From Schmidtea polychroa (Eukaryota): a DNA stretch of 64,000 bases. How positions within the stretch are numbered: position 1 is the stretch's first letter; each line of letters begins with the position of its first letter. The notes under the pieces were generated by a model. It saw only the letters and a list, made by a program, of their open reading frames with translations, made no database searches and had not been told where the DNA came from. Positions 1 to 31,029 of the stretch are shown here, in pieces. The stretch covers positions 111,268,397-111,332,396 of the forward strand of contig CM097887.1 in assembly GCA_044892525.1 (NCBI GenBank). The letters are read 5' to 3'. The translations under genes were made by a program, and so were the position numbers.

Positions 1-2
1 CG

Positions 3-2732
3 GAAGCCTTCATAATCTTAATAGATCTATTATCATATGAGGATAATAGGGAGATAGGAAACATGTATGACGGGTTATTAACTGGAATCAAAGAGAAATT
101 AATAACAATTACTGGAATACTAATTGCATGGAGGAACCCGATCAAAAACGATTATATGGTAGATATAAACGAAACATTTACCAAAGGAGAAAATACCTTG
201 ATGAGGGAAGCGATGAGAGGACATCACCTATTCGAAATTCCAAATCAACTACTACAACGTGGCATAAAATTTTCAAATCACAAAGACGAACAACTAATCA
301 GAAAACGAATTACCAACTTCGAAAAAGCTATATCTCAATTTACCGATAAAGTACAAGTAAAATTTTGGGAAACCGTGAGTGTATTATATATGATGGAGAA
401 TATGAACAACATTCGAGAAAACTACCTAAGTATTATTCAAGTGCTTACGGCGGAAGAACGCATTAACAGTTCAAACAAGTAAAAGATAAAAATAAAGAAA
501 GTAAAAACAAGAGAGTCTGAGGAACAAGTCGATCAAATAATAACCGATATAGCAACAACAAGTAAACCAAAGATAATAAACTCAGACCAGGAGATAATAA
601 TACGCAAAGCCAAAGAGGTGTTCTTTGAAGAAATGCAAGATCTATCCGATGAAGCGATACTAGCAAAAATAACAAAAACAGTACACACCTACGCAAGAGA
701 CCAGACCACAAATCTAGACATAGAAAAAATAAAAACATTTATACCACTAGCATTCACCTTACCAACAAAAGACTCAAGAACACCATTACAACAAGCCATT
801 TTAGCAGCAAATGAAAACAGAGCAATAACCATCATAAGAATCCTTGGAGACTTCGGAGAAGAATCTAATGCAAAAAATGAACAAGGAGAAACAGCAATAA
901 TGTATGCAGCCATAACAAATATACACCCGAAAACATTACATATACTACATCGATCGGGATCAAGACTGGACGAAATATCAAACGAAGGAAATTCTACCAT
1001 GGATTGGGCAACCATACAACCAAACTTGGAAATGATTAGATTCATTTGTAAAAATGCTACAAGAACTGAGGTAGAAAATATCTGTAAAAACACGTCACAG
1101 TTCCAATGGAACACGATACGGATGAACTTAGAAGCCATGAAGTTATTGCTAACATGGAAAATACCGCAAAGCAATAAATATGCAATAAATATAAATGAGT
1201 TCTACGAAAACGGAGAAAATGCTATGGTTAAAAATACACTAACAAAAGGAGGAACTCCGAAAATCATAATGATCGTATTGAACAGAGAAGACCTCAAATT
1301 CACGCAAAATCTAAACGAACAAAAGCGGATTGGAAAACATCGCCGTATACAATTGAGAGAACTGGTAAAAGAATGGAATAGAAAGAGACATGTAGCAACA
1401 GGCAGAAAAGAGTTTGAATTCGAGGCAAAATTAGCAAGGAATAGAGTGTTAACGGCATATCGCAGATTATTGAACGACATAAATGTCGAGGACGACATTT
1501 CAAACGATAGCGGGGGAGATAAAGACGATAAAGACGACGATGATAATGAACAAGGTCGAAACGGGAATGGAGAGAAAGAGAAATCAGAGGAAAATAATCA
1601 AGGGAATAACGACTCAGGTATAAAAAAGGAGGAAAATAAACCGGGAAGCCGAACAAAGGAAGAGGAAAAGACGAATAATGGGAAACAGAGGGTATGCCCA
1701 CTTTTTACCAACAAGGAAATGGAAACAAATATGATGGTAATGATACTCATACTAACAATGATAGAAATGATAACAGCCCACGGTGGAATGAGAACGATAA
1801 AAGAAGCCAAGGAAACGGAAAACAAAGACAACAAGGAGAAGGAACTAAAGCAAGAAAAGAAGAAGCAAGTACGAGAGCAACAATGGGATTTAAAAGAAGA
1901 ATGGGATCTAAAAGAAAGATGCATACTAGGAAGATGTATGTCGAGAGCATATCGGAGACTAGTATTAATAAATGAAGATACAGAACCAATAACGGAAGTA
2001 AGAATACAAGAAGCATACCGGAATCGAGACGGGAAGAGAATAACTAAAGTCAAAGGGAAGGAGGTACACCTGAGAAAAGGAGGTGAGGTAGTGATAACGC
2101 AACTCCAGCCAAGAAAAGAACACAAAGTCTGCATTTCAAGATTAGGACCGGGTGAAGACTGTCTACAATATGTAACACAGCAACAACCTCCAAAAGAATA
2201 CACAGTATGCATCTGGAGAAACGATACAGCGAGAGAATGTCGACGATACCCTGGGAAAAGAGGGAGGAAAAGAAAAATCAATGACGAAAAAGATGAGCAA
2301 GGAAAACGCAAGAAAACCGATGAGAAATATCAAGACAATTATGTATCCGAGGAGGAGATGGAGAAAATACAAAGAATGGCAAAGGAAGGTATGAACGAGG
2401 AAATAGCAAGAATACGAGGAATGATAAAAGGAAATGGCAAAGACGGTAATCTAAAAAACACAGAAGCAATATCAACAATAACGAACAAGGAAAAAGCAGA
2501 AATTATAAGCATAAAACAGATGATGTGGATCAGCGGCATAATAATAACAGGGGCCTTTTTAATCATAACGGGGGAGACAATAAAAATAATCAAAGATAGG
2601 CGGCATCGCGGAGAACTAGAAATGGCCAGAATAAGAAATTTTCAACATCGTGTAAAACGACCAAGTAATATCAAGCAGGAACAGTGGGTGGAGGCCTGGA
2701 ATGCTCAGCGCCCTCCAAGCCCACGTATATAG
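3..2732 (+). CDS. Accessory ORF A (5'-partial): ankyrin repeats + acidic linker + internal signal/TM + FN3-like ectodomain + TM; one in-frame TAA at 480-482
   Basis: Frame 3 is open from base 3 to 2732 except for a single TAA, so ORFs 63-482 and 618-2732 are in the same frame. Ankyrin-like units: DINETFTKGENTLMREAMRGHHLFEIPNQLLQRG, RTPLQQAI, GETAIMYAA, GNSTMDWA. Hydrophobic segments: MMVMILILTMIEMITAHGG and MMWISGIIITGAFLIITG. FN3-like motif VVITQLQPRKEHKVCI and an NDT sequon. Confidence 0.7.
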
Positions 2733-2900
2733 AAAGGATTATGACTGTATATAGATTGTAAAAAGTAAGTAGATAATATTTATTTATATAACAGTATGAT
2801 ATATTTTTATATAACCGCGGTATCAATATTATATAACGATGGGGATAAATAATATAAAAATAAAATTGGATAAGGGTTGAAAAGTATATATAAATTAAGA

Positions 2901-3275
2901 ATGGAGCGAATAGGCGAGGAAGTAAATCACAGTACAACAACCGAGGAGATGTGGAAACAACAATGTGCAATGTTAACTCAAGTGATTTCGAACTTACAGG
3001 AACAAGGACTCGCTGTACAAAGAAGCTTAGTCGAAAGTTTAAATAAAGGCTTCAGTTATGTAAGAATAATCGAAGACCAACGAATAAAAATAGAACAAAT
3101 GCAGCGAGAGATAGACCGAATATCACGATACAGCCAGGTGCAAGAAGAGGAGTTATTAAGAATCGCGGAAGAGATGGAGCGAGAGGAGATAGAAGACTGG
3201 TCAGAATGGTTAACCAGCAGGGAAGAGGGCGGACAAGAGGCGACTCTTCCAGCCAATAAATATAACCTAAAATAG
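2901..3275 (+). CDS. Accessory ORF B, small coiled-coil protein (124 aa)
   Basis: ATG at 2901. E/Q/R-rich heptad-like sequence with the same codon bias as the flanking cassette ORFs. Confidence 0.6.
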   Translation: MERIGEEVNHSTTTEEMWKQQCAMLTQVISNLQEQGLAVQRSLVESLNKGFSYVRIIEDQRIKIEQMQREIDRISRYSQVQEEELLRIAEEMEREEIEDWSEWLTSREEGGQEATLPANKYNLK

Positions 3276-3348
3276 CAATGTAAATAACTGTAAATAAAAA
3301 TACGAAACTGTACCAGTAACGAATATATGTATATATATAATTATAGAA

Positions 3349-4736
3349 ATGGATAAGCGACAACGAGAAGAATTCAAAGAAATTGTTGAACAAGTCAGAA
3401 AGTCCACCACAATTCGAATACACAACCATGTAACGTGTGGGATATGCAAGAGCTTATTAAGAGAACCTCACCAAACCAGATGTGGATGCAGAATGTGCAG
3501 AGAATGTGTAGAGGAGATAATAAAGAAGGGACCACAATGGTGCCCAGTATGCAAAGAAACAATGATAACAAGTTTGGGAGATACAAACGAAGATAAAGCA
3601 GCTGTAAAAGATATGTTGAATGCAAACCTAGGATGTAAAAACACCCCATGTAATTGGCGAGGAGTGATATGGGAAGTGAGGCAACATATGGAGCAATGTG
3701 AATATAAAATCAGTCAATGCAAACGTTGCCAAGAAGAGATTAAAGTCAATGAAGAAGCAGAACATCAAAGTCGATGCGAAGGAAGACTGGAGAAATGTGA
3801 GTATTGCGGAGAAACCGACACCTGGAAAAAACTAATCAGTCAACATCACAACATACAAGAGGAGAAAGTGTGCACAGAATTCAGAGGAGAATGCCCCAAC
3901 AAATGCGATAAACCCGGAGTAATAAAACTCGCTCAACATCTAAAAGAATGTGAAAGAAAAAGATAACGTGTGTGCTAGGAAAATGGGGATGTCAGAAACA
4001 ATTACACCGAGGGGAATTACCCCAACATCTAGCAGAAAACGTATCAACACACGCGGAAATATGGTCAACGGCATTACAAGAAAACGAAAGGAAAACCGAA
4101 AACTTAGAAAGAGAAATAATCTCGCTAAAAGCGTTGGTAAAAGAACTATTAGAAGAAAAGGAAGCATTTGAAGAGGCAAGAACAAGTACAAAGATACAGA
4201 CAGATCTAGTAGAAACTAGCAACATTATGGTGAAAGAACTACATCAAAAAGTAAGCGAATTAAACCTCAACGAATTAATACCAACGGCTCCATACATATG
4301 GAAAATAACGGGAGTAAAAGAGAAGATGCAGAGAGCGAGAAATGGAAAGGATACAACATTACTAAGTCCAGCATTCTACTCATGGAAAAACGGGTATAAA
4401 ATGAAAATGAAAGCATACCCCAATGGGGATGGGAGTGCATACGGAACGCATTTCTCAGTATTCTTCTTGATGTGCAAAGGGCTATACGACGAGTTAATAG
4501 AATGGCCATTCAAAGCAAAAATAGACCTCGCAATGATGAACTATCAAAGTATACATGAACAGAGTTTCCATACAGCGGGAAACCTCGTATGTTACCAAAG
4601 GCCCTTGGAAGAAGAAGGACCAGCAACTGGAGCACCGAATTTCATCCTACAGCGGAAAGTAGAAGACATGACGAGAAACGACACTATATACATAAAAATA
4701 GCGGTGAGGCGAGACGGGAAGAGTAGGACTGAGTAG
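3349..4736 (+). pseudogene. TRAF: TNF receptor-associated factor (RING + TRAF zinc fingers + coiled coil + MATH), intronless, split by a 1-nt frameshift
   Basis: RING CGICKSLLREPHQTRCGCRMCREC...CPVC, TRAF zinc fingers (CKNTPCNWRG...HMEQC), and a MATH domain (YIWKITG...SPAFYS...GYKMKMKAYPNGDGSAYGTHFSVFF...EWPF). Adding one A to the A5 run at 3957-3961 fuses the two ORFs as ECERKKITCVLGKWGC. Confidence 0.92.
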
Positions 4737-4950
4737 AGAGACGAATAATTTTGTATATACTAATTGTAAATATCGGCGTATATATCCAGTAAAATATTAT
4801 ATAATAGTGTAGAAAACCCCAAATCTACTAAAGGTAAACTTAAGCGTAAAACTCCTAAAACAACTCCTATAACGAATTGTAACAATAAATAAATAATAAA
4901 ACAGATATAGACGTACAACGTTGAGTTAATGATATCGTTATTTAGACAAG

Positions 4951-5988
4951 ATGACTCAAGATCAAACGGAAGCCCCAAATAACGAAATAAACATCAGTAG
5001 AATACATAGAGAGAGATGGGCCAAAGTAATGATACAATTATCAAACCAAACACGAAATTACCTCGAAGAAGCGAGAGAATGGGAAAACCACCAATTCCAG
5101 TGGTTAGTACAGAATTTACGGGCGGAGGCCGAGGCCTGCAAAAGAGCCGCCAAATGGTCGGCATTAGAAAATACCAGGCAAGAGGCGCACGGGCATTACC
5201 TGAAGCAGCTGGTACAGGAGTCAAGAAAAAGACTAACGGATGAGAATAAGAAGCGGGAAGTAGAAAAACAAAAGGAGGAAAGAAAGACCCGCCAACTATT
5301 AGCAGAAGCTAGAAAGTGGAAAAAACAACATCGAGAAATCCAAAAAGAGATGAGAGAATTGCCGCAGAGATTGAAACACGAGAGTGATCAAGGAAAATGG
5401 GAAGAAAACCTGGATCAGAAAGAAGAGTTAAGAAGGCTCCGGAAAGTAGCAGCTAGAAGTCAAACCTGGCAGACCAAGGCCATGGAATTTGAAAGGCATC
5501 TGGCCATGAAACTGTCTATAAAGGAACAGGAAAATACCGCCATGGAAGAGATGATCCTGCAACAGTCAGGTAGAATCGTCGAACTCGTAAACAAGGTGGC
5601 AGATCTTGAAAGAGACAATAACGGCTATAAGGGGGCACTAGAACAAAGGAATATAGTGCTAGCCGGTAAGAATAAGAAATTGGAAAACGAGAGGAAGATG
5701 TATGACGAAAATATCAAGAACCTCGAAAAGGAGATCAAAAAATGGGAGAACGGCGAAAAAGCGGAGGAGTTAGAAAAACAGATAGAAGTAAGAGATGATG
5801 AAACCAGGTATCTGACATACCTGTTAGACGAGGAACTCAACGTGTCAAGAGCGCTAAGAGACGAAGTTCAGGAGCTTAGAGCACAGATTCCCCGGTACTA
5901 CATCCCATTTGATCCCATCGCAATCCAACTACAAACGTCAATAGACAGCGATGAAGGGTATGTAGGCCAGGAAGAAACCTTTGTATAA
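4951..5988 (+). CDS. Accessory ORF D, long coiled-coil protein (345 aa)
   Basis: Intact ORF, E/K/R/L-rich helical sequence with a short non-coiled C-terminal tail. No recognisable family. Confidence 0.7.
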   Translation: MTQDQTEAPNNEINISRIHRERWAKVMIQLSNQTRNYLEEAREWENHQFQWLVQNLRAEAEACKRAAKWSALENTRQEAHGHYLKQLVQESRKRLTDENKKREVEKQKEERKTRQLLAEARKWKKQHREIQKEMRELPQRLKHESDQGKWEENLDQKEELRRLRKVAARSQTWQTKAMEFERHLAMKLSIKEQENTAMEEMILQQSGRIVELVNKVADLERDNNGYKGALEQRNIVLAGKNKKLENERKMYDENIKNLEKEIKKWENGEKAEELEKQIEVRDDETRYLTYLLDEELNVSRALRDEVQELRAQIPRYYIPFDPIAIQLQTSIDSDEGYVGQEETFV

Positions 5989-6038
5989 AGATAAGGTGAA
6001 AAGATAAAAAATATAAAAAGCGGGACCTGTATCCCAAC

Positions 6039-6067
<29 letters not shown>
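6039..6067 (+). repeat. Poly(A)29 tract between ORF D and ORF E
   Basis: 29 consecutive A, flanked by imperfect direct repeats CGGGACCTGTATCCC (6021-6035) and CGGGACTGTAACCC (6093-6106). Confidence 0.9.
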
Positions 6068-6070
<3 letters not shown>

Positions 6071-6183
6071 ATTAGTACGATAAAAATATTTACGGGACTG
6101 TAACCCTGATTATATAAAATTACCTATAAATGTATAAGTATAAGCCGCACTGTAGCGCACTATTAATTGTAAATATTGTAGAA

Positions 6184-6894
6184 ATGAAAATAGAAGAAAT
6201 ATCCACCATGACCGAGCTAGAGGAGGGAGAAATTGAAATCGAGGAAGTGGAGAGGAAGAAAACTATCAAAGAAGAATTACAAGAAGAGAAACAAGAAAAC
6301 GAAAGATTAGTAGAAAGGTGGAGAGATAATCGAAAAATGATTAAAGTATTGAAAAGAGAATACACCTTGCTAGAAGAAGTAAAGAAAGAAGTAGAGGAAG
6401 AAAATGAATGGCTTCACGAGCAAGGAAAGCGAGGAAGAAATTGGGAGAAAATTGCGGAGGAATTATGGCAGGAAAGAGCCAGTCTCAAGGCTAATGAAGT
6501 GATTGAAGATTACTGGAAAACGGAAGCGAGGAAACGACAAGAAACTATCAGGGGTCTAGAAAACCAGCTGGGAGTAAAAGTGCAGGAAAGTGCAAAAATG
6601 GAGAAATGGATCAATAAATACCGAGAAATAGAAATAAAACGGCAGAAACAAAGCCCAAAGACGAACGACCCAGAAGAAAATGATTTCCTACAATTGGAGC
6701 TGGAACGGAACTTGGAGGAGAAAAAGAAGGAGATAAAAACCTTGAAAAGAGAGATAAAACACTTGGCGGACAAGGTCCAAGAGAAAGATAGGCAGCTCGA
6801 GATGTTGCCGGAACTCCGACATAGGGTCATTAAAGCAGAATCCAAATTAATGAGAATCCGAGAGAGAGACCCTAAAAAGAAACGACAAAATTAA
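6184..6894 (+). CDS. Accessory ORF E, coiled-coil protein (~236 aa; alternative start 6130)
   Basis: Intact E/K-rich heptad ORF. The ATG at 6184 follows a TAG acceptor-like site, and the charged composition begins there. Confidence 0.65.
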   Translation: MKIEEISTMTELEEGEIEIEEVERKKTIKEELQEEKQENERLVERWRDNRKMIKVLKREYTLLEEVKKEVEEENEWLHEQGKRGRNWEKIAEELWQERASLKANEVIEDYWKTEARKRQETIRGLENQLGVKVQESAKMEKWINKYREIEIKRQKQSPKTNDPEENDFLQLELERNLEEKKKEIKTLKREIKHLADKVQEKDRQLEMLPELRHRVIKAESKLMRIRERDPKKKRQN

Positions 6895-6953
6895 AACCAA
6901 CAAAAAGCGATGTATATAAATATGTATAAAATAACTAAATGTATATCAGTATC

Positions 6954-7613
6954 ATGAGAAGCCAACCGATCATTGTAACGCTGATGATGATGATAATTCT
7001 TGATCTAACCCGACGACAGCCAGTGAAACCCCAAATCGAACGGGTTCGAGACAACAGAAAACCCCATCAGAAAATCGAACCAACAACCCCATCGTGCACC
7101 TGCTCAAATGCCATAAGAACCAATCTTATCAATAACCTTCGAGCAACCCGAAACTACATCAACAACATCAGAATTATGTGTAATCACAACCCTATGTGTA
7201 AAATCATCGATAAAAGAATTCTGGACCAAATTCACCAAGTCGATCAATTAGAACAGCAGGTCCAACACCAAGAAACACAAAATCCACCCGATCAAGTAAA
7301 AAGCCCGAATGAAATAAACCACACCTATGAACTCCTCTATGTGGTAATCGCCGAGACCACCTTAATCTCAATAGTCACCCTGCTAAAAATCGGTAACCTC
7401 TGCAAAGTTTGGAAGAAAAGTCACCCCGTACCAGAAAGATCATCTCGAAGATCCCAAGAAGCTAACATGGCTGAAGTAATCCATGAAAACCTCCGTCAAC
7501 GAACCTCCATCGCAGAAACAGTCAGACCATCCGCAAGTCGCCGAATATACTACAACATCGAACCCCAACAACCAAATCCCCCATCATCAACGGCAACTGA
7601 ACACCAAACATGA
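6954..7613 (+). CDS. Accessory ORF F, small type I membrane protein in the env position
   Basis: N-terminal hydrophobic signal (IIVTLMMMIILDL), Cys-containing helical ectodomain (CTC; CNHNPMC), TM segment LLYVVIAETTLISIVTLLKI and a cytoplasmic tail. It is the last ORF before the PPT-like tract. Confidence 0.65.
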   Translation: MRSQPIIVTLMMMIILDLTRRQPVKPQIERVRDNRKPHQKIEPTTPSCTCSNAIRTNLINNLRATRNYINNIRIMCNHNPMCKIIDKRILDQIHQVDQLEQQVQHQETQNPPDQVKSPNEINHTYELLYVVIAETTLISIVTLLKIGNLCKVWKKSHPVPERSSRRSQEANMAEVIHENLRQRTSIAETVRPSASRRIYYNIEPQQPNPPSSTATEHQT

Positions 7614-7829
7614 CACTTCGAACTGTAACTATTGACAAAATTCTTGATGTTTTATTATATTATGATGAAACCGGTCACCTTAAGTGGCCACTGCTTGTCT
7701 ATAATTGTCATTTTCTCTGTTTAATTAAAATAATTTTTGTTAATTTAATTCTATGTGTGTGTGGATTTTGATTGTGAGATTAGTTGTTATACTGAAAGCA
7801 GGTACGATTCGAATGTACGATATTATGTG

Positions 7830-7867
7830 AATTGCGGGACGCAATTTTAACGGGCCCCGGAGTGATT
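7830..7867 (+). other. Gypsy-type 3' hairpin and degenerate polypurine-tract region
   Basis: Perfect 7-bp stem AATTGCG/CGCAATT with a GGA loop (GGGACG core), followed by TTTTAACGGGCCCCGGAGTGATT directly before TG at 7868. The tract is not purely purine. Confidence 0.55.
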
Positions 7868-8365
7868 TGTTGGGCCAAGCTCCGAAGGTGTTGGAAAAAC
7901 GAACCTAGGAAGGGATAGAGTAAAATAAAATAAAAACATATAAAAATACGAGAAACATAGGAGGAAACAAATTAAATATCCAGAAAGAAATTAGAATAAA
8001 ATTAGAATAACTAAATAAAATAACAAAACCCCTAAAGGAAAAATAAGACAAGAGGGAAGGCACCTAATAAACGACAGTAAAAGAAAAAAAAATAAAATAG
8101 CAGAAAATTTAAGAAAAATGAACAAAAGTAAAAGAAGAAAAACAAAATAAAAATAAAAAAATCATCCATAAGGCTAATTAAAACAAAAAAGGAAGTTACA
8201 ATAAAATAGCAACAAAACCACAAGAAAAACAGATAAAATAATAAAAAATAGGAAAATAAATAAAATAATAATAAAAATAGGAAAAAGTCATTAAAATATA
8301 CCTGATTACATTAAAAAACATAAAAATCATAATAAACAATAATATTACATGCAAGTCGCGTCCTG

Positions 8366-8389
8366 ATTGGACGAAAAGTAATATATAAA
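8366..8389 (+). promoter_or_regulatory. LTR Pol II promoter: inverted CCAAT box and TATA box
   Basis: ATTGG at 8366-8370 and TATATAAA at 8382-8389, followed by a hairpin-forming region (8403-8436). Confidence 0.6.
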
Positions 8390-8709
8390 GAGCGACAAAA
8401 ATCTGTAGAGTATCATTCTAACCCGAAACTCTACAGGTAAAATTTTATCCTTTATAATATCATTCTAACCCGAAACTCTACAGAAAAGCTAGGAACCACT
8501 CACAAGCACAGATTATTGAACCATATTCATTTATCGGATAACATATACATTGAACGGAGATCGAATTCAGCTCAGTCGAACGAGTCTATCTAAAGAAAAC
8601 TTATATTACTTTGATCTAACACCTTCGGAGATTTTTGGTAAATTATGTTTTAGATTTTAGTATGATGATCTAAATATTTATTATGAATTTAACAAGTCGT
8701 TTATAATCC

Positions 8710-8750
8710 AATAAATTTCATATTTTAAACGAAGGTGTTGCTTTCTCTCT
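8710..8750 (+). terminator. Putative LTR polyadenylation signal with GU/U-rich downstream element
   Basis: AATAAA at 8710-8715 followed about 20 nt later by GGTGTTGCTTTCTCTCT. Confidence 0.4.
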
Positions 8751-10708
8751 ATGAGGCTGGCGACGGCGTCCTCTGGAATCCGGGTATGATGCAGTTGGGT
8801 TTTTCGAACGTCCTACGGAGAGGAAATTTACGAATATGAACTCGGGAAATTGAAGTGATAGAACTAGCCCAGGATCCATATGAATTTAGAAACTAAAGTG
8901 ATTACTTAATGAATACGAGATTTATGCTAACCAGAGTCATCATGCCCGGATTTCAAATGTCGTGGTCGCCAGGTGAACATTTATTTAATTGATTTTCTCA
9001 TAATTCCATTATTTCTATATTGATTCACTGAATAATTAAATTGTATTGTTGCACATTTATTGAGAATGGAGTTGCGATGAGACGGGTCGAGTCGTCCTTC
9101 ACACCGGTCCAAGAGCAGTGGGCAGAGATGCGTACTGCCTTGGGTGGGTTGTGAGGAGCGAGGAAACCATGTGAGATTTAACAAATCAAGTAAATGATTC
9201 TTTCATCGAGTGTAATCCACCCATCTTAGTCGTCGAAAACCATCCAATGCAGAAACTTCTGAGTGACATAGTTTGAGTCAACGATACCTTGGGAACTCCC
9301 GGAGGCATACCATTAGAACTATCATCAGCCTTGTATCCAATCACGTCATTAATAATCTTTGATTTGGAGCCTTATTCGTCTTGCATTGAGAGAAGCGACT
9401 GCTAGAACGTCTGCCGGAAGGAGTTATTAATTTCGAGTTTTTACGAGAGATTCTCTGTACTAAGCCCATTTCGTATCTTACAATCTGAAGGTGCTTTGGA
9501 AGCTACACCGCCGGGAGGTTAGCGAATAGATCCATCGTCTTGCTTATCGTCGACTCCGGGGGGACTTAATCATCAACCGACATCTAGCCGCTGTCATCGA
9601 TAATAGCCGTTTTAGAGATGAATGTAAACATCTCTAGATAGTAGATTTAAACACTGGCTATGAGTCCGAAGGAAACGGTCGCCAGCGACATCGGGTGGGC
9701 GTAGTAGACTGCCGGGAAATCGGTTGATAAGATATCTGAAGCCTCAGTCACGAGCGAACGAGTTGACAGTTTTTATCTCAAAACCAATTAGTGGAGCAAA
9801 ATCTAAATATGGAATCGATCTTATCTAGTAGATTCGCAATTTAGCCCACACAATTAGATTCACGAGTTTTCTATGACACCCTCTTAGATTTCCACCTATC
9901 TAGAAAGTCAGCCAGCGATGTCATGTCTAGTGTGCAGATAGTGGATAAATTTATCTCACGATTGTGTAACGGTAGACCAGGAGATGGTAGACTACATGTC
10001 CAATCCGACAGTGAGATTACGTCATACTGAATAGTAGAATGTTCTACCTAGTCCACGACCACAGGCTGAAGATAAATCATACAATGCATGCATACGAACA
10101 GACCTGACAACATCTGCTAGCCTACCTCCAGGGTAAAACTAATACACCACTACTCACAAACAAGCGTCGTTATGACGACATTTATGGCGCAAGATTTAAG
10201 ATGATCAAATAGCAAATTATGATAAGACTTAAATTGAATTTTGCGGTTCTTTTATGAAGCCGATCACGGCGGTTTAAAACCCCAATAGTCACCCGTCATA
10301 CCGAACTATGTTTTTGTGACTTCACGAGTGCGAAATTTTACGAGTATAGTAGGACGGGGAGTGGGAATGCTATTACTAGGGAAGGATAATTATAACAAAC
10401 TCGACTGTGGTAAATTAATAAAAGCACATTAAATAAAAATGGCCAATTTCGGACAACAAACATAAATTCAAAGTTAGGATAAATGTATTATTTTGAGGAA
10501 GCCCGTTTTCTTTTTTTTTTTTTTTTCTCTATCAGTGTGGATGCTTGCAGACAAATGAGTGTAAATGTTGACCAGTGATATGGGTAAGTGGGTCATTGTC
10601 GAGTAGGATGATTGGAAATAGGGTAAAAATTGTAGTCAAAATTTGGAAACGACACTCCAACGATTTTTTTTTTAAACTCTACAATTAACAAAACGTCTTG
10701 ATCTTTAG

Positions 10709-11470
10709 ATGCCTGCTTCAACCGCTACGAACAAGGATCTCCGTCCCTGCTTCTCCTGCGCAGATAAAAACGCAGACATAGCACAACTCCACTCATACAT
10801 TGGGGCACTGAAAAAGAGAATTGATCTCTATGAAGGCACGTGGTTCTCCCCGCCACAGATGAAGGAGGAGCGCAGTAAAATTCTTCGGTTGGAACATTGC
10901 CGGGACAGCCTCCTAGAGGAGAGTCGCTGTCAAAGACTGACGATCAAGGCGCAATCGGAAGCCCTCCACAAGGTCTACACGGAGGCAGAATTGGCCAAAC
11001 GGGTACGAGAATTTCCCGTCTTGGAGGCCAGCAATGTTTTTCCCACTCACCACCAAAGTACTTCCACCGCTACAACCAGTTGTCTGGGGCACGGCTCCTA
11101 TCTGCCGCCTGTTCCAGCACCGGCCTTATATAGTTGTCAGCCGCCGGTAGGTGGTCCATCCGACCCTATCTTGGCTCCAGTTTTAGTGACATCAGTTACA
11201 GCACCCGATGCGGACAACCATCAACCACAGCGTAAAAGAAAACGGCCGACCCGAGCCGCCAAAAATCAAAGACGTCGAGATGCAATCGCGGCTCTCGAGG
11301 CGTCGTTATCTGTGGCCAAGTCTTCTCTGGAGAAGTTATCGTCAATACCCTCTACCCCCACAAAGGAGATATTCCGGGTGATCTCGCCCGAAGGGGTCCA
11401 GCTCGTGCGAGACCGTCGGTTACCGGTCGACATCGACGAGATGATCGCCGAAGGGGAAGTTTTCCCATAA
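10709..11470 (+). CDS. LTR-encoded 253-aa protein (CxxC, coiled coil, Arg-rich motif, acidic C-terminus); intact copy
   Basis: Intact ORF preceded by TTTAG. Homologous ORFs at 32975-33748 and 43587-44360 share LE(H/R)CRDSLLEESRCQRLTIKAQSE with mostly synonymous differences. Confidence 0.85.
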   Translation: MPASTATNKDLRPCFSCADKNADIAQLHSYIGALKKRIDLYEGTWFSPPQMKEERSKILRLEHCRDSLLEESRCQRLTIKAQSEALHKVYTEAELAKRVREFPVLEASNVFPTHHQSTSTATTSCLGHGSYLPPVPAPALYSCQPPVGGPSDPILAPVLVTSVTAPDADNHQPQRKRKRPTRAAKNQRRRDAIAALEASLSVAKSSLEKLSSIPSTPTKEIFRVISPEGVQLVRDRRLPVDIDEMIAEGEVFP

Positions 11471-14270
11471 TTGGACGTGTCGTTGACCCATCTCTCATTC
11501 CACGCGATCAAGCTCAACAATCTTTATAAACGACTTAGATGATGCGTGTTGTGTACTCTCCTACGTGTTGTGATCGGAAATTTGTGTTCATATGTATCCT
11601 CAATTTCATTAATATAATCATAGTATTCGTTGTGTTGTCCCGTAAAAGTTATAGAGTGATGAGTTATGACTGGACGAATGGATTGGAATGATCATTGGAG
11701 AATGTGGGTCGTCCCCTTGGACCAGGGTCGTACCGAGAATACATGACGAGTAGGGGTAAGACCTTCTTAGGCACCGAGGAACCTGAACTGAGAGGGGGTC
11801 CGTAGTAGTCCTAAGGCAGGGGCTCACCTGCGGACCAACTCCGACCCGTGTGAGCAGTACCAACGTGGGTAGATCATCACGGGCTCACATGAGGGAATAT
11901 TTGTAAATCATGCGGGTTATGTGGGGGAAGGGCCCCGAGCTAAAGGAACATGATGCCAGCTGCACTACGAATGTCCGTTTGACTCCTCCCATATACGCCC
12001 AACAATAGTAATCGATAAAAGTGTAATTGTGATTGTCTCGAATAAAGATTATTGTGTTTGGTTGTTTAAATAAATTTCAGAAAGAACACAAAGGAGTCAG
12101 ACCGTGATACCGACTTGCACAAAATAACTAACACTAAAATGTAAGATGAAAAATATAAGATCATGAAGATTGTTGAAGAACAACCGAATATGACGAAGAA
12201 ACCTCTTCATAGTATGAAACCTCAAACCTTAAACAAGGTCTTGGAGAACAAAAAAGATTCTCTCGCAAAACTGTTTGATTACAGCTGAAGATAATTCTCC
12301 CTTTTAGACGAATATTTTGGATGTAGTCAGTCATAATGTCTGTAGAATAAAGTGAAAAGTAGAATGATTGAAACCAGTTTTCGTTCAACGGGTTTTGTCA
12401 AAAGGACAGAATTTTATTGGACTAAACCCAGTAAAATAACATTTTAAATTATCCTTTTGTTTAAATTAATAATAATTAAAAGAGAAAAATAAATGGTCAT
12501 CTGAGAAGACATCAAATCAAAGAGCAGTTATTTAAAATAATTAAAAACACCAATTAAAACTAAAGTAAAGTAAAACAAAAATAAGAGATAAATAAAACAA
12601 AATTAATAAAATCAGTATCACATTATGTATAACACACGAAACATATTTTAAACGCATAAAACTACAAAATAAATTGTCGAAAAAAGACAATAGCAAAAAA
12701 GTATCACCTTATCCATGGGAATCCTTAGAGGTTATTAGCCTAAACGGTGGTAAATGTTCTCAAGTCACCAGCTGATGGCAGTATCAGAGTCTCCATATGA
12801 GGCAGCCGTACAGTCATCTCTGACAATTATAATATTAAAATAACCGCTCGACATCATCTAAAGAAGGCCACGGCAATCAGTCAATTCTACAACCATGCCA
12901 TTCCGTTAATCATCAACCTAAGCTTGAACGAAATGGTTTTCTCCTTTACAGTCAATGCCAACATCTTCAACCTTGATGATTTGTTGGCCAATGTCGAAAG
13001 AGAGGTTATAAGCCCATCTGGAACTTTGTGTGTTGAACTAATTCATTTTGTTATGTTTTGTCAATTATTATTCATTAAATCTCTATCGCTGTATTGCTTT
13101 GATTTTCATTTTTTCTAAGTTACTAATAGATATATTATAAGTAATAATTATCATCTTCATCTTAACAGATAGGTGGTATTCAGGCCTCAAGAAGGAATTA
13201 ATATATCCCGTAAATTTTGAGGACCACAAATTTCGATATGTTATGACAATACCAACTTATCGTCTCTAGCTTTGGCGTAAGACCTTTTATAGCCCGTCCT
13301 GAACCCGTTTCAGATCGTACGATAATGAATAGTTCTGGCTTACCTGCTTATCGACCTCAATCTATTATGTACAATTCCAACATGGCCATCGATTTCGGTC
13401 CTCCAAGCTGATGGCTATTTATTATCGCTATTTATTTTAATTTGGAATACCATATAATCCTTATCGCACGATTCAGTAGGTTATGTTTTATATTTGTTTA
13501 TGTTTTTTTGTTATGTTTTGTTTCATGTATAATAATTTAAATCAATAATTTTTCTGATTCATTTTTTCTTAATTTAATTTAGTTATTATTATGTAAATTT
13601 TATGAATGCACTTGTCCAAAAATTCGATTTGTAAAGATATATGCTGTAGTCGGATGACAATCCACACCATTAAGCTGGGGGAGCTCAATGAAATTCTTGC
13701 GAAGTCGTGTGGAGTTTGGTGCCTCAATTTGAAAGTAAGCGGTACTCGAATTCCACTTAGAGAGGACTTTAGTGCAAATCACCTCCGTGACCATTTATAG
13801 TATCAAAATATGCATATGAAAACCAGATCAATGATGAAAACCCACATTTTATCCTTTCGAGCGATTTCCAGCGCAACCCAGAATACAAGAAAGTTGTACT
13901 GCTCGATACCCGTTGAGCTTTTCTCGCTGGTGTTGTCCACTTGTCAGTGAGAGGGCTCCAACCGATAACCGTGATTCCATGCTCGAACCCGGAGTGCTTC
14001 TTATTTACGAGCTTGAATTCAAATGTTTGTTCAATCTGTTGATCTCCCTTAGCTGCTATTTTCGTTTGTACTGTTGGGGTTGGGCTCGTTCAAAGAGCAA
14101 TTTCATTAACCGTATAGAGACTAGGATGATAGTTATAATAATAATAATATGTAGATAATAATAAAAATTATTAAAAATAGCATAGATATAATAATAGTAT
14201 TATTTAATTACCTAAAATAAATTAGAATTAGAATTAGTACATTTAAATTACTATATATAGATAGTATGCT

Positions 14271-16131: not shown

Positions 16132-17475
16132 CTCACTATAGGACATTGATTTATCATAAGGACATTCAATAAGCTAAAAATTTTCATTTTTAAATCAAAT
16201 TATTGTCAAAATGTTCGAAGATATTTCAGAAGCTTCTTCAGAATCAACAATTCCATTTCAAGAAATTCATAGAAATGTGTAAGTTTTTCATTAAACTTTA
16301 ATTATTTTTTAAAAATCGATATAGAATTACCATTAAAGATAAAGAAAGAATCATTAAATCCATGGAAGATGACCATGATTATTATGAATTAGGCCGTATT
16401 CTTGGAATTAAGCGGAATACAATAACCAGCATTATTTTGAAATATAAGAAGACTGGAATTTTATCCGCAGGAACAAGAGGAGGCAATCGACCAACAATTA
16501 TCACAACAATTATTGGCCAGGAATTATTGAACTATGTCGAAAGAAATTATTATTCGACATTAAATCAAATGAGATTGTTTTTATCTACAAATCACAATGT
16601 AGAAATTTCCACAAAATCAATATCCAGGTACCTGAAAAATCAATTATTAACCTTCAAAAGGATCAGGCCTTGTGTGGAAGAAAGAAATTCAGATAGAATA
16701 TTGGATATTCGGCAGACATATGTTACACGTCTGCTTGAAGAAGGTTGGAGGAGCAGTAAATCTATTTATATAGATGAATGCTCTTTCAATACATGGACAA
16801 ACAAGAGATTCGGAAGATCTCGAGTAGGCACTCGAATTTACAGCAATGTGCCAACAAATCGAGGTCCCAATATTTCATTAGTTTTGGCAATATCCAAAAA
16901 TGGGCCAATCCATTCACAAATCATCATTGGCTCTTTTAGAAAGGAATCATACCAGTCATTTATAACAGAATTGACTGAGAAACTGAATGGCTCTGGATTC
17001 ATTTTGATACACGATAATGCATCCATCCACAATAATGTATTATCTTTGAACAATCACATAGAAAAGTTGCCTCCATATAGTCCATTTTTGAACCCCATCG
17101 AAAGTGTGTTCAGCAAGATTAAAAATGGGGTAAGGACTAAAGTTTCCTCGACTAATGGATTTTCCAGGATGAGTTTCAATGACAGATTTATCGCAATATC
17201 CCAAGCAGTTATCGAGGAACTTAGCAAACCAGATTATAGTAATTTGAAAAATTACTATAATCATATTAAAAGGTTCTTCCCTAAATGATTGAAGAAGCAG
17301 GATATTTTAGGTGAATTCTGAAAAATGTAATGTATATTATAATAAATAATTAAATATCTTACTTCTTTATTCATTATTTTTAAAAAAATCTTAAAATTAA
17401 CTAAAATCCAGAACAAAGCTTATTTGACAAAGCTAAATGAATGTCTCATTTATGATAATTAAATGCGCTTTGGTG
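16132..17475 (+). mobile_element. IS630/Tc1/mariner-superfamily DNA transposon
   Basis: Transposase gene flanked by degenerate inverted ends (CATT.A.TTATCATAA...GACATTCA.T.AGCT on both sides) and TA dinucleotides at 16130-16131 and 17476-17477. Confidence 0.75.
16211..17321 (+). CDS. Tc1/mariner-type transposase, two exons (16211-16278, 16325-17321), premature TGA at 17286-17288
   Basis: 46-nt GTAAGT...TAG intron joins in frame. N-terminal HTH region. Catalytic motifs IYIDECSF, IHDNASIH and PPYSPFLNPIE. The frame continues LKKQDILGEF after the TGA. Confidence 0.85.
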
Positions 17476-22973: not shown

Positions 22974-25900
22974 TTACCTGTAATCGTAAACCGGTTGCAA
23001 AGAGATGTGATTTGATTTGACAGCAGAATTATCAGCGCAGCCGATGCCAACACTTCCTCCTGAAACAGCAGTAGATGTGCAAAATGGTTCCTGAGGTGCC
23101 AATACAGGCATTGAAGGGCTCGAATGATTCCAAGATGTGGGCACAGCTGCGGTAGCTGTTGCCGCCACCAAAGACGACGATTGTATGATTTTCGAGGACG
23201 ATTTGTCATGCTCAATGAAGCATCCGGGAACAAACAGCTCATTGATGTTTGATGAATCGGAAACCACATCGACCACATGATTAGCACCGTTACCAAGGGC
23301 ATTCATTGTACCAGTTAATAGCTGGCGTTGTGAAACTTTCTTATACTTGGAATTTTTGACGACGACCAAATCGAACTCATGTGGATCAATAAAAACGGTG
23401 GGATCACTGCCAACAAGATATGGGACTGGTAATTGAGTGAATGAATGATGATTAGTAGCTGCTGCAGAATCGGCATGGCCTCCGGCTGTCATCACTGATC
23501 CCACTGCGGAACCAGCAGCACCGTTGCCAACGCCTGATAATGGATCCCGCTGTTCTTGTCGCTGAAGGAGGCTGCTGATTTCATTGTGTGCTACATCAGA
23601 ATCGCTGTCGCTAGTGGACTGGGTCGGACTGAATTGTAATCCCGCTAGTTGCGGACGTGAACGGTGCTGGAGAGATGGCGGTGGAACTAAATTCACTCGT
23701 TCATTTGGACTGAATTCGTAATTAGGCTTGATAATCCCACAACAGCAACAACACGAGGAAGATGAACACGAGCAAGACAATGGCTGATTCTCATTGGTCG
23801 GCGCTTCAGTCACGCTAGAACGCTTTTTTATCAGCTTCAGCTTCAACAATCCAGTGGTCGGTCGGATGGACATATTCTGTGCACTCGGACTTGATCCAAC
23901 CGTCTCCATTGGCTGTTCTGGACTCGACATTTCTATCGATGAATTTTTATCCGATCGATCCTGGGGTTTTGTTGCCGCTAGCTTGAGAATCAATGGCGGT
24001 CTTTCAGGCGTTGCAATTTGCTGGTGTTTAATTCGTTTCATTTTGCACGGTGATATTTTGCGATGTTTCATTGGACTCGTGCTGCTGTTGCTATTGCCGG
24101 CACTTGTATTGTTTGTCAATGCTGCTGAACTTCGTCGGTCTTCTTTCCGTGTACAGAATATCCGTTTGGTGCTGTTACTGCTGATGTTCGATTCTATGGC
24201 GTATTTCTTGGCTTGTCGCTGGATCAATGGCGGCGGTGGAGGAGGCGGTGGGGGTGAAATTATTCCTGGATTAGATTTTATCATCTTTGTCCGTCGTGTC
24301 TGCTTTATGGTTTTAGTTGTTATTTGTTTTGCTGTAACTTTGGTTCTGATAGGAATATTGATTAATGGCGGTGGCGGAGGGGGAGGATCAAGGGGCCGCT
24401 TGGTTGTTGTGGAAACGATTTTCATGTGAGACAGACTGATTTTAACTTTTATTGCTAGCCGTGGACTGGCAAATGACGAATATTTATCATTGGTTAACGG
24501 TTGCGAGTGGTTACAATGGGAATCCTGACTCATTTGCGGCTCTACAACGTTCCCGTGATTGTCGCTCTTAATTTTTCGAATTTTCTCCAAATATTTCACT
24601 GATCGTTTACTTCCGGCTGAATTCTGGTGGATTTGTTTGCACAATTTCGATTCTGAAGTCACTGAAATCGTACCGCTCTTTTTATAATTGGCCTTTTTGT
24701 TGAGAGATTTCTCTTTTCTTTTGTCCGGGAAATTGCCTACCTGTGCCGTTGGTAATTCCAATACCTTTGTCGATCGAATGACACTGGAATTTAGGATCCA
24801 CTTGTTGCGTTGCTTGCTCTTGCGTAGCCAAGAGGCATCCGGTCGATTGGAGGAACTGCTGAAATCTTGGATTGTCAAATTATCCTCTATGTTCGTCTGG
24901 AATGGCAGCATCAATTTCGGCGGGCAAACCTCATCAAACTGCGGTTCCTCGTGCTCCTCGTCATATTCCTGCATTAGACTGCTGCATGGACTGATTGATT
25001 GGCAACTTTCGAGAAATCTGTCGAGATTCGCCAATTGTGTTGGATCACGTTTGATTGGGCTTATATCGGCCAATAAATCATCCTCGGTCAGTTCATCTTG
25101 TTCGGATAGTCGAGTGCAAACTGACAATGGACGAGAATGGTGCTGAATTGCTGGCGCAGTTCCGGTGCCAGTCCTAGACTGCTGTGGTTGTGTTGGTGCT
25201 GAGGCCACCTCAGTCGATGGCAAGAAACATTTGAGTAGCGGTGTGAGAATCTCAGAATGATGCCCGAGATGAGCGTAGATTAATTGCATAACTCGTTGTT
25301 GTTCAACATTTGATGCGGTTGCGGAGGCAATTGATGAAGAAATGGTCCGTGATGGAGTGGAATCAACTAATGGCGATTGTCTGGCAATAACGACACAATT
25401 CGAACTAGGAATCATAGCCTGTTGTGAAGCCGAGATAGAATATCCAGTATTGATCATCTCGATGACAGTTGCATTGAAATATGTAACCGGCTCAATACTG
25501 GCAACCGCAGAATCCGAGCATAAATCCTCCTCAATGATCAATTGTGCATATTTCAGATCAAGGATTGTCACTAACTCATCCAATATATCATCGAATTCCG
25601 GTTGATTGGGAGGGATTGAATTAGCAGCGACGATTGAAGCATCAGACATAACATTGATTCCATGACAGAAGCTATCGATCGAGGCATTATCTAGACCAGT
25701 CGGAATAATGCAATATTGCTGTGCGTCTGATGCAATCCCATTGGTCAGCTCATTGACGAATGAGGACGCAGCTGAGTCATCATCACCACCACATTGGCCA
25801 GACATTTCCCATGCCATCAATACATTATCTTTGTTGTTATTGATATTGTTACAGCTGGCATTGTTGGAATTTTCTTTTTTCGTTGATTTGCTGGACCTTG

Positions 25901-26841
25901 AAGCGTTCGGTCGTGATTTGACAGATGATTTGCGATTTGTTGGTCGTTTAAAGGTTTGAATTTGATTAATATTGTTTTGAATCGGCTGAGTAGTTATTTG
26001 GTGCATTATCTGTCCTGTCGGTTGATATTGCAATGTCCTCGGCATTATTGGATGCTGAGGTTTCGGTAATTTAGGCAAAAGCTTCGGTAAATTCGACCCG
26101 TGAGATGTTGTTGTCATGATGGCAGATGAACGGATATTAGAGGCCGCTGTTGCATTAATCATGGATCCAGCATCATGACTCGTTGTTGTGCTGTTTGTTT
26201 GATTAGATCCACTATTTGGCATACTGAAAAATGCGTGGGGTCCAACGAGATATGAAATAGGATTATTGGATTGATTTGTTTGGCCCATCATTTGATTAGA
26301 TTGTGACACAGCAGTTTGAGTAGTTTCAGGTGTATTCATTAGCGGCATTATTACAATATTAGGTGGCATCATAGACTGTTGATATTGGGCAAATTGGTTC
26401 ATGTTGATTGGAAGAAATTGCATGGATGCCTGCTGATTGTTCTGCTGTGGAGTTCCGTACGAGCAGGATGAAATCTGTTGTTGCAGTTGTTGATCAATAT
26501 CACAATCAGATCGCTTTCGTTGTTCATTGCTTCGAATTGGGATGCAGTGTGAACTTGAAGGACGATTTGGAACCTGGCTAATTGGAGGGGTAGCTGGTAA
26601 GCTTCGAGTTCCAGATTGAACTTTACAGTCCGATGACATTAATGATAAAAAATCATCTTGTGGCGCTTCGGTTTTTGTTGGTTTGTTCGATCTAAATCTA
26701 TCAGAAATAACCAGCAACTATTTTCATATTAGTATACCCAGTAATGTTTGACATGTTAGAGTTACTAGAACAAACTATTGATTCATTTCTAATAGGAGCT
26801 ACCGTTGCTCGTAAAGGAGTTGTTTGGGATCTCACTGCGTT
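22974..26841 (-). CDS. Large low-complexity (S/Q/N/P-rich) probably nuclear protein; 3.7-kb exon plus an upstream 104-nt exon; gene ends uncertain
   Basis: 1247-codon open frame. A 40-nt intron (26698-26737) joins exon 26738-26841 in frame. Possible donor at the 3' end (AG|GTAATA). Basic clusters and poly-Pro runs. Confidence 0.8.
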
Positions 26842-28461: not shown

Positions 28462-31029
28462 TGTATATGTATAACGTCATATGTATAAATAAAAATAATT
28501 AAAAAGATAAGTTTTAATTTATACAGCCAATTATGATTTTAATTGTTAAATAAGTTTGGTTAAATTACAAATCTATGTTTTTTCGTTGCGGGCCGCGTGT
28601 TTGAGACCCCTGCTGTATACTATGCTATATAAATTATATTTAGCCAAGAAATTAAAACAGCAATAAATACAATTTTTGCAACTCTTTTTGTTTTTGAGGC
28701 ATACTTCACTTATTATTTCTGAATCTGAATCAGTTAATTCATCGGTGTTATATATATCTTGCATAGATATTTTAAAGTCGTCCCATTTTGTCATTAAATC
28801 AGTTAATTCCTCCTTAAATTTGACCCTGTAACTGTTTTATGATATTTTACTAGTAATATACTGAGCTCTTCTAAACTGTTTTCTGAACATTTATTGTCGG
28901 TAAAATTTTTAGGGTCTAATATTGCCATGTCTGCATATAATTTTCCATGATTTTTAAAACGTTTTTTTATAGTATTTATTGTTGTATCCATAATTACGGT
29001 AAACGTGGATATTTTATATTTTTCGATTGGGTTTTGAAATTCATGATCTTCGGTTATTTCGTCAGGCATTCTCTTTCGTCGTCTAAATCTCTCTTCTGGT
29101 ATATCTTCTTCGACAATTATTTCACAATTTTCCTCTTCAAGTGGTGTATTCGCACGTTTAGCAAATGAATTTAACTTTTCTTTTACATTACTAAAATCAC
29201 GTGAAAATTTTTTTAAAGAATTTAATGTGGAAGTTACCATGTGATAAGCTGTTAAATAATTTAAATTGCTGGTTTGTAAATATTTAGATAACGGTCCAAT
29301 ATATTGAAAAACTTTTAAATAAATATGCGCTGTAAGTATAACTTTAAATTTCAATAAAGACTCCATTAGTGTTGATGCAGAGTGTCTAATTTGAGCATTG
29401 AAAGATACATTTGACACAAAATAATTTAAAGTTATCAATAAGTCTACATATAATGAGGTTTCTTTGTTATCATAATGCCCAAAAATTTTTTTAAGTGCTG
29501 TTTCTTTTGCTGACCATCTTGTTTCCCCTATAACGTTAAGTCTCTGATATTTACACTGGTGTTTTCCCAAACATCCATACGTTGATAAGATTCTCTTAGA
29601 AATACGGAACACGAGTTGAGTAATTGAAAGAGAGAAGTACTTTCAATTACCGAACATTTAGCATCTGTGACAACTAAATTCAATACGTGGGCATAACACT
29701 AAACGTGAATTTGACCAGGCGATTCTTTACTTAACAACTGGTGAAGCCATTATACTGTCTACGCCTGTTTGCTGCTCCGTCTGTCGAATTACCGATACAA
29801 TTTTTAATATTTAATCCACTGTTTTTAATAAAAGTACTAATTAAATTGCACATGTCTTTCCCTGTAGACGATTTGCAATTTAAAACAGCTACTACACGTT
29901 CATAAATATTTCCCTTTACATATCGGACAACAATTAAGCACTGATCCTTTTGTGTTATGTCCTGTGTGGTGTCAATTTGCAAAGAAAAAATACCTGCTTC
30001 CTGTATATCTAACAAAATGCTATCTTGAATTAATTTTCCACTGGCCAAAATTACCTGGTTAATAGTAGATTTTGAAATTAATGAAATGAAACTGCCTCTA
30101 CCTTTAGTTACCGCAGATGTTTCATTATTTTTCTTCTTTTCTTTGATGACTCTTGATAAATGTAATTTTAAAACAGCGTCATATTTAGAGAGTAGCAATA
30201 TTATTTCTAAAAAATTACCATGGTCTTCTTGATTATTTTCAAGTGAAAGTGAAGAAACAGATTCAGATCGGTGAGCGCGAAAAGCTAATCCTCTTTTTCC
30301 AATTAATTTTACAACATCTATAATTCTTTCCAATACTTGCTTTCGTTCAATAATATTTTTCTGACGTATGCTTCCTTCATTTGTTAACATTAAATTATAA
30401 ATATCTTTGCCTTTAGATTTGAGCATATGACAATTTACACAATTTTCATGAGTTTTACTATTTTCATGTTCTTTAACACGTTGCAAAGTGTGCCTTCAGT
30501 CCGTCATTCCACGATTTACAAACGAACTCTCGTTTGTAATATCACTGTAAGCCAAACACATGGTACAAAATAGAGCATTTTTTTCCAAACTATATGATAG
30601 CCAACGCCTATTTACTTTATCTTCTCTATAAAAAATTAAATTTGGTTTAAAAGGTAAATTAGTAATTTAATAATTTTGATTTCCTGGCCTTATGAAATAA
30701 TTATCTGATAAGAAATTAAACATTTTGTTTGTTGGTGTTATCATTTCATTATTGGCCTGGGTGGAAGTTGAAACTGAAGTTATTTCTTCGAAAATTGATG
30801 TTTCAACTTTATCTGCGCCAATGGGACACATAATAGTATCATCATTCCTCGAAACTGATGAACTTAAATCCAAATCCTTATTCAAATTTTCAATATCAAA
30901 TGCATTGATCTTAGAAGTTGAAGCAAACATATCACTTAATTTAAGAGTATTTTTAGCAGCTTCTTGCATGATTTTTTGTCACTTTTCTTTCTCTTTTTGA
31001 GCGCCTCCTTTAAATTTTCTTTTTTCCAT
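27997..31029 (-). pseudogene. hAT transposase, with stops, frameshifts and a MITE insertion
   Basis: Motifs GLAFRAH, DHGNFLEII, FSLQIDTTQD, GNSTDGAAN, ETRWSAK, and the C-terminal dimerisation motif TLSSTQVACERSF.KLKIIKNR. Confidence 0.9.
28249..28612. mobile_element. Non-autonomous hAT MITE nested in the transposase
   Basis: Ends CAGGGGT.../...GTTTGAGACCCCTG, perfect 8-bp TSD CTGTATAC (28241-28248, 28613-28620), internal (AAT)n. Confidence 0.92.

Follow-up and report, generated by a model that had tools for sequence, protein, structure and literature searches.

In Schmidtea polychroa, giant Burro-type retroelements carry a whole TRAF gene, and purifying selection keeps this gene in the element copies. 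One such copy lies in the window, the stretch of 64,000 nucleotides analyzed here, and positions without a prefix refer to it. As judged from the sequence, this accessory gene under selection would on balance encode an active RING ubiquitin ligase and adaptor, through which host TNF-receptor/innate and cell-death signalling is retuned in favour of the element. For a known giant retroelement, a domain label thereby becomes a testable host-manipulation gene: a selected whole TRAF, accompanied in one family by a whole IAP.

The carrier is a Burro-type env-bearing gypsy element of 30,562 bp. Its two LTRs are 4137 bp long, 100% identical and have TG...CA ends. The 5′ LTR is located about 18.6–14.4 kb upstream of the window. 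The 3′ LTR (7868–12004, plus strand, like the other parts of the element given here) holds a 253-aa ORF (10709–11470) and is followed by ATAG (12005–12008), a target-site duplication of 4 bp that has its match before the 5′ LTR. The same frame register contains gag zinc knuckles, a fusion glycoprotein, protease, RT, RNase H, integrase and ankyrins, as detected with Pfam. The env-like Monjiviricetes_fusion domain (E = 8e-72) is in frame with the protease and RT, the ankyrins come after the integrase, and the gypsy order PR-RT-RH-IN is present. The length above 30 kb and the long LTRs are as in Burro elements. The window contains the 3′ end of the polyprotein (1–2732), namely the end of the integrase-ankyrin frame with its stop at 480–482 and an ankyrin-bearing frame at 483–2732. 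Between pol and the 3′ LTR there are five accessory ORFs, and the TRAF is the second of them. The first encodes 124 aa (2901–3275). Those after the TRAF encode a charged, helical-looking protein of 345 aa (4951–5988), 254 aa (6130–6894, likely start 6184) and 224 aa (6939–7613, likely start 6954), and none of these three belongs to a Pfam family. A 30-base poly(A) run separates the 345-aa and 254-aa ORFs (6038–6067). The first-pass annotation had proposed that the TRAF is cargo of a mobile element. Its position between identical LTRs and its hundreds of copies confirm this; that the element is a Burro had been missed.

The TRAF in the window has the domain order RING, zinc fingers, coiled coil and MATH and contains no introns, as had been claimed. 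The 5′ part (3349–3966, plus strand) encodes zinc fingers and the RING with its eight Cys ligands (3436–3552; Pfam zf-C3HC4 at aa 30–68, E = 2.9e-5, above the cut-off). The 3′ part (3954–4736, plus strand) is in a second frame and encodes the last zinc finger, the coiled coil (about 4041–4259) and MATH (about 4293–4706; MATH_2, E = 2.8e-25). A long helix is predicted at aa 232–304 of the TRAF, with the MATH domain C-terminal of it (Pfam, E 1e-24). The alignment shows that the Cys/His columns of the zinc fingers are invariant between the element TRAF and host TRAFs, and the PDB matches of these fingers are TRAF2/5/6 RING-zinc-finger chains. The Pfam family zf-TRAF scores above the cut-off in the host and in element subfamily C, and below it in subfamily A, to which the window copy belongs. 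For the coiled coil-MATH part the best PDB matches are TRAF3/TRAF2. In a word-index protein search there were 11 matches, all of them distant (24–29% identity), and named triclad TRAFs are among the best single-stretch relatives that a set of 1.84 billion representatives yielded. The predicted structure of an intact sister copy is confidently TRAF-like (mean pLDDT 84.6), and its pTM of 0.37 is as expected for a rod shape.

The gene had also been called complete, which does not hold for the window copy. The frame that opens at ATG 3349 closes at 3966 after 205 aa, and the coiled coil and MATH are in the other frame. The cause is a one-base frameshift, overlooked earlier, inside an A-rich run (3950–3962, plus strand). 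The exact 31-mer over it occurs once in the whole genome, so the frameshift near 3955–3960 belongs to this copy alone. When the same genome was searched at the DNA level with the TRAF, 361 candidates came up, and the 40 that were scored are 97–100% identical and nearly all 1389 bp long; the window TRAF has 1388 bp vs 1389 in most sister copies. Since the break is an indel, an alternative genetic code is ruled out as its cause. The frameshift is either a mutation or an assembly error. The polyprotein frame of the window element has four in-frame stops; open stretches found elsewhere reach 3230 aa in one B copy and 4791 aa in the frames of the C, or Burro1-like, family. Thus four polyprotein stops and the TRAF frameshift occur despite 4137-bp LTRs that are 100% identical (L033, L034 and window 1–4736). 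It is likely that a defective element was copied in trans, or that LTR conversion or assembly collapse took place.

We then turn to the sister copies. The sample of subfamily A comprised the 30 best DNA matches and 40 further exact-marker matches, that is, not all marker matches, and it is biased towards young intact copies. The window TRAF lacks a single uninterrupted frame, and 60 of these 70 copies have one (26/30 and 34/40). An intact TRAF was also found in all 30 B copies fetched and in 5 of 10 C loci, where the start-motif scan missed some frames. Among the A copies, pN/pS is 0.27 both for singletons and for variants in 2–3 copies, and 0.13 for those in four or more, each class deviating from neutrality with p<1e-8 (without transition correction). 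The comparison of A with B gave dN 0.18 and dS of about 2 or more, a ratio of 0.07–0.09, with dN even over the domains (RING 0.21, zinc fingers 0.18, coiled coil 0.22, MATH 0.19). The TRAF evolves about 10 times faster than RT (pN 0.159 vs 0.015), at a rate comparable to the other accessory ORFs (0.10–0.22). The TRAF is kept by purifying selection in the element copies. Neutral decay, which the first-pass annotation had named as the result that would speak against its reading, is ruled out by a pN/pS far below 1 and by retention across subfamilies with saturated dS. The same two facts make it scarcely credible that the TRAF is a neutral passenger or an ordinary host gene, even though the window copy is frameshifted and 10 of the 70 A copies have a broken TRAF, as a passenger might. 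Its location between identical LTRs in hundreds of copies rules out an ordinary host gene.

A MATH profile search of the genome gave 1551 candidates. Among the 150 that were scored, element TRAFs form three groups: A with the window copy, B (protein 69% identical) and C (33% identical). Exact markers of A, B and C were counted at least 82, 80 and 113 times, and controls gave 0. The pol of B is about 92% and that of C about 64% identical to that of A. In all three subfamilies the TRAF occupies the same slot, preceded by a homologue of the 124-aa ORF and followed by a homologue of the 345-aa ORF. The C element is Burro1-like: its 4791-aa polyprotein includes a RING-less MATH, the full TRAF is downstream, and an IAP follows. 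This polyprotein MATH (L134:493-954) is 47% identical to the host TRAF L035 and has host-like groove residues; it arose either by duplication or by a second capture. In another C-family copy (L137:2937-7133), an internal deletion joins the env-bearing frame and the accessory TRAF in a single frame of 1399 aa, an example of how the accessory and polyprotein forms could interchange. Subfamilies A and C also have a 160-aa ORF with a helical part and a RING (zf-C3HC4_3) between the 5′ LTR and gag (L033:6089-6568 and L133:3991-4470), with TAG directly before each ATG.

Part of this cargo is known. According to PMC6431247, Burro/GYPSM1 elements of dugesiid planarians carry MATH_TRAF_C, BIR, BCL2-like and ankyrin cargo, for which meddling in apoptosis and ubiquitination was proposed. 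The elements described here resemble them in a length above 30 kb, long LTRs, gag-env-pol in one frame, a mononegaviral-type fusion glycoprotein and ankyrins, and also in MATH_TRAF_C and BIR cargo and accessory ORFs; a Dugesia tigrina element likewise has MATH in an accessory ORF (PMC6431247). That text speaks of the MATH_TRAF_C domain only, in the polyprotein or in an upstream ORF, whereas the TRAF here is whole, from RING and zinc fingers to coiled coil and MATH, and its place is downstream of pol. Unlike Burro1/GYPSM1 proper, window subfamily A has neither the polyprotein MATH nor BIR, and subfamily C has both. MATH and BIR cargo in Burro has thus already been published, and what goes beyond that text is the whole TRAF, plus the whole IAP in one subfamily. 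PMC6431247 was the one relevant text that our literature searches reached, and a whole selected TRAF beside a whole IAP was not described there; Grohme 2018 and Jurka 2007 may show these ORFs. The passages of PMC11410931 examined do not mention TRAF. BURRO1 RNA was reported in the intestine upon failed PIWI silencing (PMC8532177).

We compared the element TRAF with host TRAFs. Of the 150 scored MATH rows, 56 were tallied as host-type, and 37 of these loci were fetched. The window TRAF has an AT skew of 0.41 with third-position A of 0.50 and T of 0.14, vs 0.00–0.18, 0.31–0.37 and 0.30–0.44, respectively, in five host TRAFs. Over all element TRAFs the AT skew is 0.31–0.41 vs at most 0.18 in the 37 host-type loci, all of which are host-like in composition. 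The suggestion that the gene has been ameliorated to element-like codon usage therefore agrees with the data. The absence of introns was earlier taken to show capture via mRNA, and here the result is different. Several host TRAFs are full-length and intronless (L035–L038, L040, L076, L124), and their flanks of about 10 kb contain scattered unrelated or solo-LTR-like matches without the Burro pol/accessory cassette. Because the closest host TRAFs are intronless outside elements, the intronless state as proof of mRNA capture is ruled out; for an LTR element, capture at the RNA level would still be the default assumption. As far as the intronless host TRAFs examined are concerned, TRAF paralogs lie outside such elements. 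L035 is a single copy with 71% identity to Dugesia japonica TRAF-2-like A, and eight weak DNA matches to it (L142–L149) contain no TRAF frame.

The closest known genes are triclad TRAF2-like genes. Dugesia japonica TRAF-2-like A, Dendrocoelum lacteum TRAF-2, -4 and -5 and the host loci L035–L038, L076 and L124 share with the element TRAF the domain layout, a length of about 455–475 aa, the zinc-finger pattern, a RING with Cys for His and an intronless coding region. The element TRAF differs from these genes in an identity of only about 26–33%, in the element codon bias, in altered MATH hot spots and in hundreds of copies vs the single copy of L035. The motif CGCRMC, in which Cys stands for the His of the RING, is present in the window as reported; it is not diagnostic of the element, since Cys for His is common to host TRAFs. 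CGC was found in all nine aligned host rows that have a RING, and also in Dendrocoelum TRAF-2, -4 and -5 and in some echinoderm TRAF3-like proteins. Among public sequences, 15 of 95 RING motifs have Cys for His, and 55 of the 150 matches yielded no motif match. These host rows and public TRAF RINGs rule out an element-specific substitution.

In the trees, A, B, C and the polyprotein MATH come together with SH-aLRT of 76–88 (64/69 in the careful tree), and none of these values is starred. This group lies among triclad TRAFs, and the A+B+C clade has support of 80–90. Long branches and composition bias may draw the element rows together. In the alignment, element TRAFs share a Pro-aromatic pair before the first MATH strand, which fits a single origin. 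None of the 27 host rows is inside the element clade. The phylogeny called for earlier does not fix the sister group of the element TRAFs: AU tests rejected none of four donor placements (p 0.11–0.45), including element TRAFs outside all host TRAFs. The element may have captured its TRAF long ago from a planarian TRAF2-like radiation whose coding regions were already intronless.

A planarian TRAF expansion has been reported (PMC6109357), and the first-pass annotation proposed that element copies could contribute to it. For S. mediterranea, 99–282 MATH transcripts have been published. That element-borne TRAFs seeded the expansion via domestication appears highly improbable. Three points would suit seeding: introns are missing from several host TRAFs, there are more element copies than host loci found, and a position of element TRAFs outside all host TRAFs was not rejected (AU p 0.41). 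Against it, no host row of the 27 is in the element clade, and all 37 fetched host loci have host-like composition. The intronless host TRAFs moreover group with named Dendrocoelum and Dugesia TRAFs, retain the canonical MATH motif and are without Burro flanks. Large host TRAF clusters with RING and MATH in separate frames are located at G000:C2 ~1.4-5.4 Mb and 105-124 Mb, and it is likely that one intron lies between the two frames. This two-frame cluster forms its own group in the trees, so the host expansion is not element-derived in this sample; the large, host-like and separately grouping host set does not bear out the earlier proposal. When TRAF, MATH or BIR genes are counted in planarian genomes or transcriptomes, hundreds of element copies can be among them, and for RNAi or probes against "TRAF-like" transcripts an element origin is worth checking.

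What the protein may do is suggested by its RING and its MATH groove. In TRAF2, the hot spots that bind Px(Q/E)E are the serine triad S453–S455, R393 and Y395 (PMC6125299). At the triad, compared with TRAF2/3 structures, there is L-V-C in A, Q-I-A in B and S-P-A in C. The R393 position is K in A and B, and Y395 is retained. The polyprotein MATH and host L035 both have R, Y, PD and S-A-C at the groove. Since host paralogues vary at the groove residues as well, the change need not be an element-specific adaptation. It is possible, though quite unlikely, that the element TRAF is a dominant-negative decoy which co-assembles with host TRAF2-like proteins or takes their partners and blocks signalling without ligase activity of its own. 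The changed receptor-binding hot spots in A and B and the retained coiled coil agree with such a decoy. However, none of the 70 A copies has lost any of the eight RING cysteines, dN of the RING is no higher than that of other domains, and a better candidate for a decoy is the RING-less polyprotein MATH of the Burro1-like element, with its host-like groove and 47% identity to L035. The Cys for His in the RING, once read as a sign of altered or dominant-negative function, is the host state in 9/9 RINGs. The alternative reading as an E3 ligase has held up better, since the intact RING with its invariant cysteines is compatible with it. An active, retargeted ligase-adaptor fits the intact RING and changed groove better than a decoy does. 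Such a protein would form trimers through the coiled coil, and its remodelled groove would bind changed targets.

In subfamily C, the gene next to the TRAF may indicate a partner. A 392-aa IAP with BIR and RING starts 144 bp after the TRAF stop. One complete IAP, with BIR and a C-terminal RING, is at L135:3608-4783 (G000:C1:21553607-21554782), and there are about 150 or more similar loci. Of 309 BIR candidates 150 were scored, and in 29 of the 30 loci fetched a C TRAF adjoins the BIR gene. The IAP has one BIR, slightly closer by score to XIAP BIR2 than to cIAP BIR1 structures, and no CARD match. The coiled coil of vertebrate TRAF2 binds BIR1 of cIAP (PMC6262405). Because of this, the adjacency in C is suggestive: as in the TRAF2-cIAP pair, a coiled-coil TRAF stands next to an IAP bearing BIR and RING. 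Unlike cIAP, the element IAP has a single BIR and no CARD match, and it is absent from the window subfamily. In Burro1-like elements the TRAF might recruit the adjoining IAP as TRAF2 recruits cIAP. In a bolder form, which we put forward tentatively and regard as rather doubtful, retrovirus-like Burro would carry a portable TRAF-IAP ubiquitin-ligase module made from separately spliced subgenomic RNAs, whose retargeted TRAF recruits its own IAP (Burro1-like) or that of the host and shuts off death/innate signalling in element-active cells. We did not find a BIR gene in the examined stretches of A and B elements, so the pairing cannot be the whole explanation.

For the reading that we favour, a ligase-adaptor acting on host signalling, the element TRAF would blunt host defence and cell-death signalling for the element. 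Host planarian TRAFs are needed for cell survival (PMC7586133), and TBK1 induces planarian TRAFs and limits foreign-gene expression (PMC13563047). A ligase for the element cycle, which promotes particle release by ubiquitinating Gag or the polyprotein, or eliminates a restriction factor, and has no part in TNF-type signalling, seems unlikely. It would agree with the remodelled groove, with the second RING ORF before gag in both subfamilies examined (A and C) and with the env-like gene, which implies particles. Nevertheless, the cargo of relatives has a cell-death theme (BIR-RING in C; BIR and BCL2-like in PMC6431247), and the whole TRAF architecture is retained. A fold search with the model also gave TRAF-like proteins encoded by iridoviruses and by giant DNA viruses (11–25% identity). 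One viral TRAF, megalocytivirus ORF111L, induces apoptosis through TRADD (PMC3352826). These viral proteins are alike in that a selfish element has a TRAF acting on host signalling; their carriers are DNA viruses, while the carrier here is an LTR retroelement. ORF111L promotes and does not block apoptosis, which counts against the reading that cell death is blunted (PMC3352826).

The accessory ORFs are likely expressed from spliced subgenomic RNA, as the bases before their starts suggest. A short AT-rich spacer precedes each accessory ORF. At the end of the spacer, right before the TRAF ATG, there is a TAG (3344–3346, plus strand), a candidate splice acceptor that is kept in A, B and C (26/26, 30/30 and 5/5 intact copies, respectively). 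A YAG ending 0–6 bases before the first or second ATG was found for 5 of 6 listed cassette or LTR-proximal ORFs in A and for 5 of 6 in C, and the background before ATGs in general is 19–26%. Splicing is likely because of this enrichment and the conserved TAG, and the TRAF would be expressed through that TAG. Contigs of four runs compared with 1–12004 gave no joint to the candidate acceptor 3346 among the joints listed, and contigs cannot decide splicing. In the LTR (8410–8490), a TATA-like box precedes a 27-base unit whose repeats flank a GT...AG interval, which could be the donor source for the accessory ORFs.

Several other features lie in or near the window. A Tc1/mariner-type DDE_3 transposase is encoded at 16362–17288 on the plus strand, and on the minus strand there are a DUF4371 ORF (29731–30426) and a low-complexity ORF of 1221 aa without a Pfam match (22974–26639). 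About 40–25 kb upstream of the window (L031–L032) there is a run of minus-strand ORFs, which look like those of a Polinton/Maverick-type element (DNA polymerase-like, capsid-like, integrase-like, and an ATPase with GPSGSGKT).
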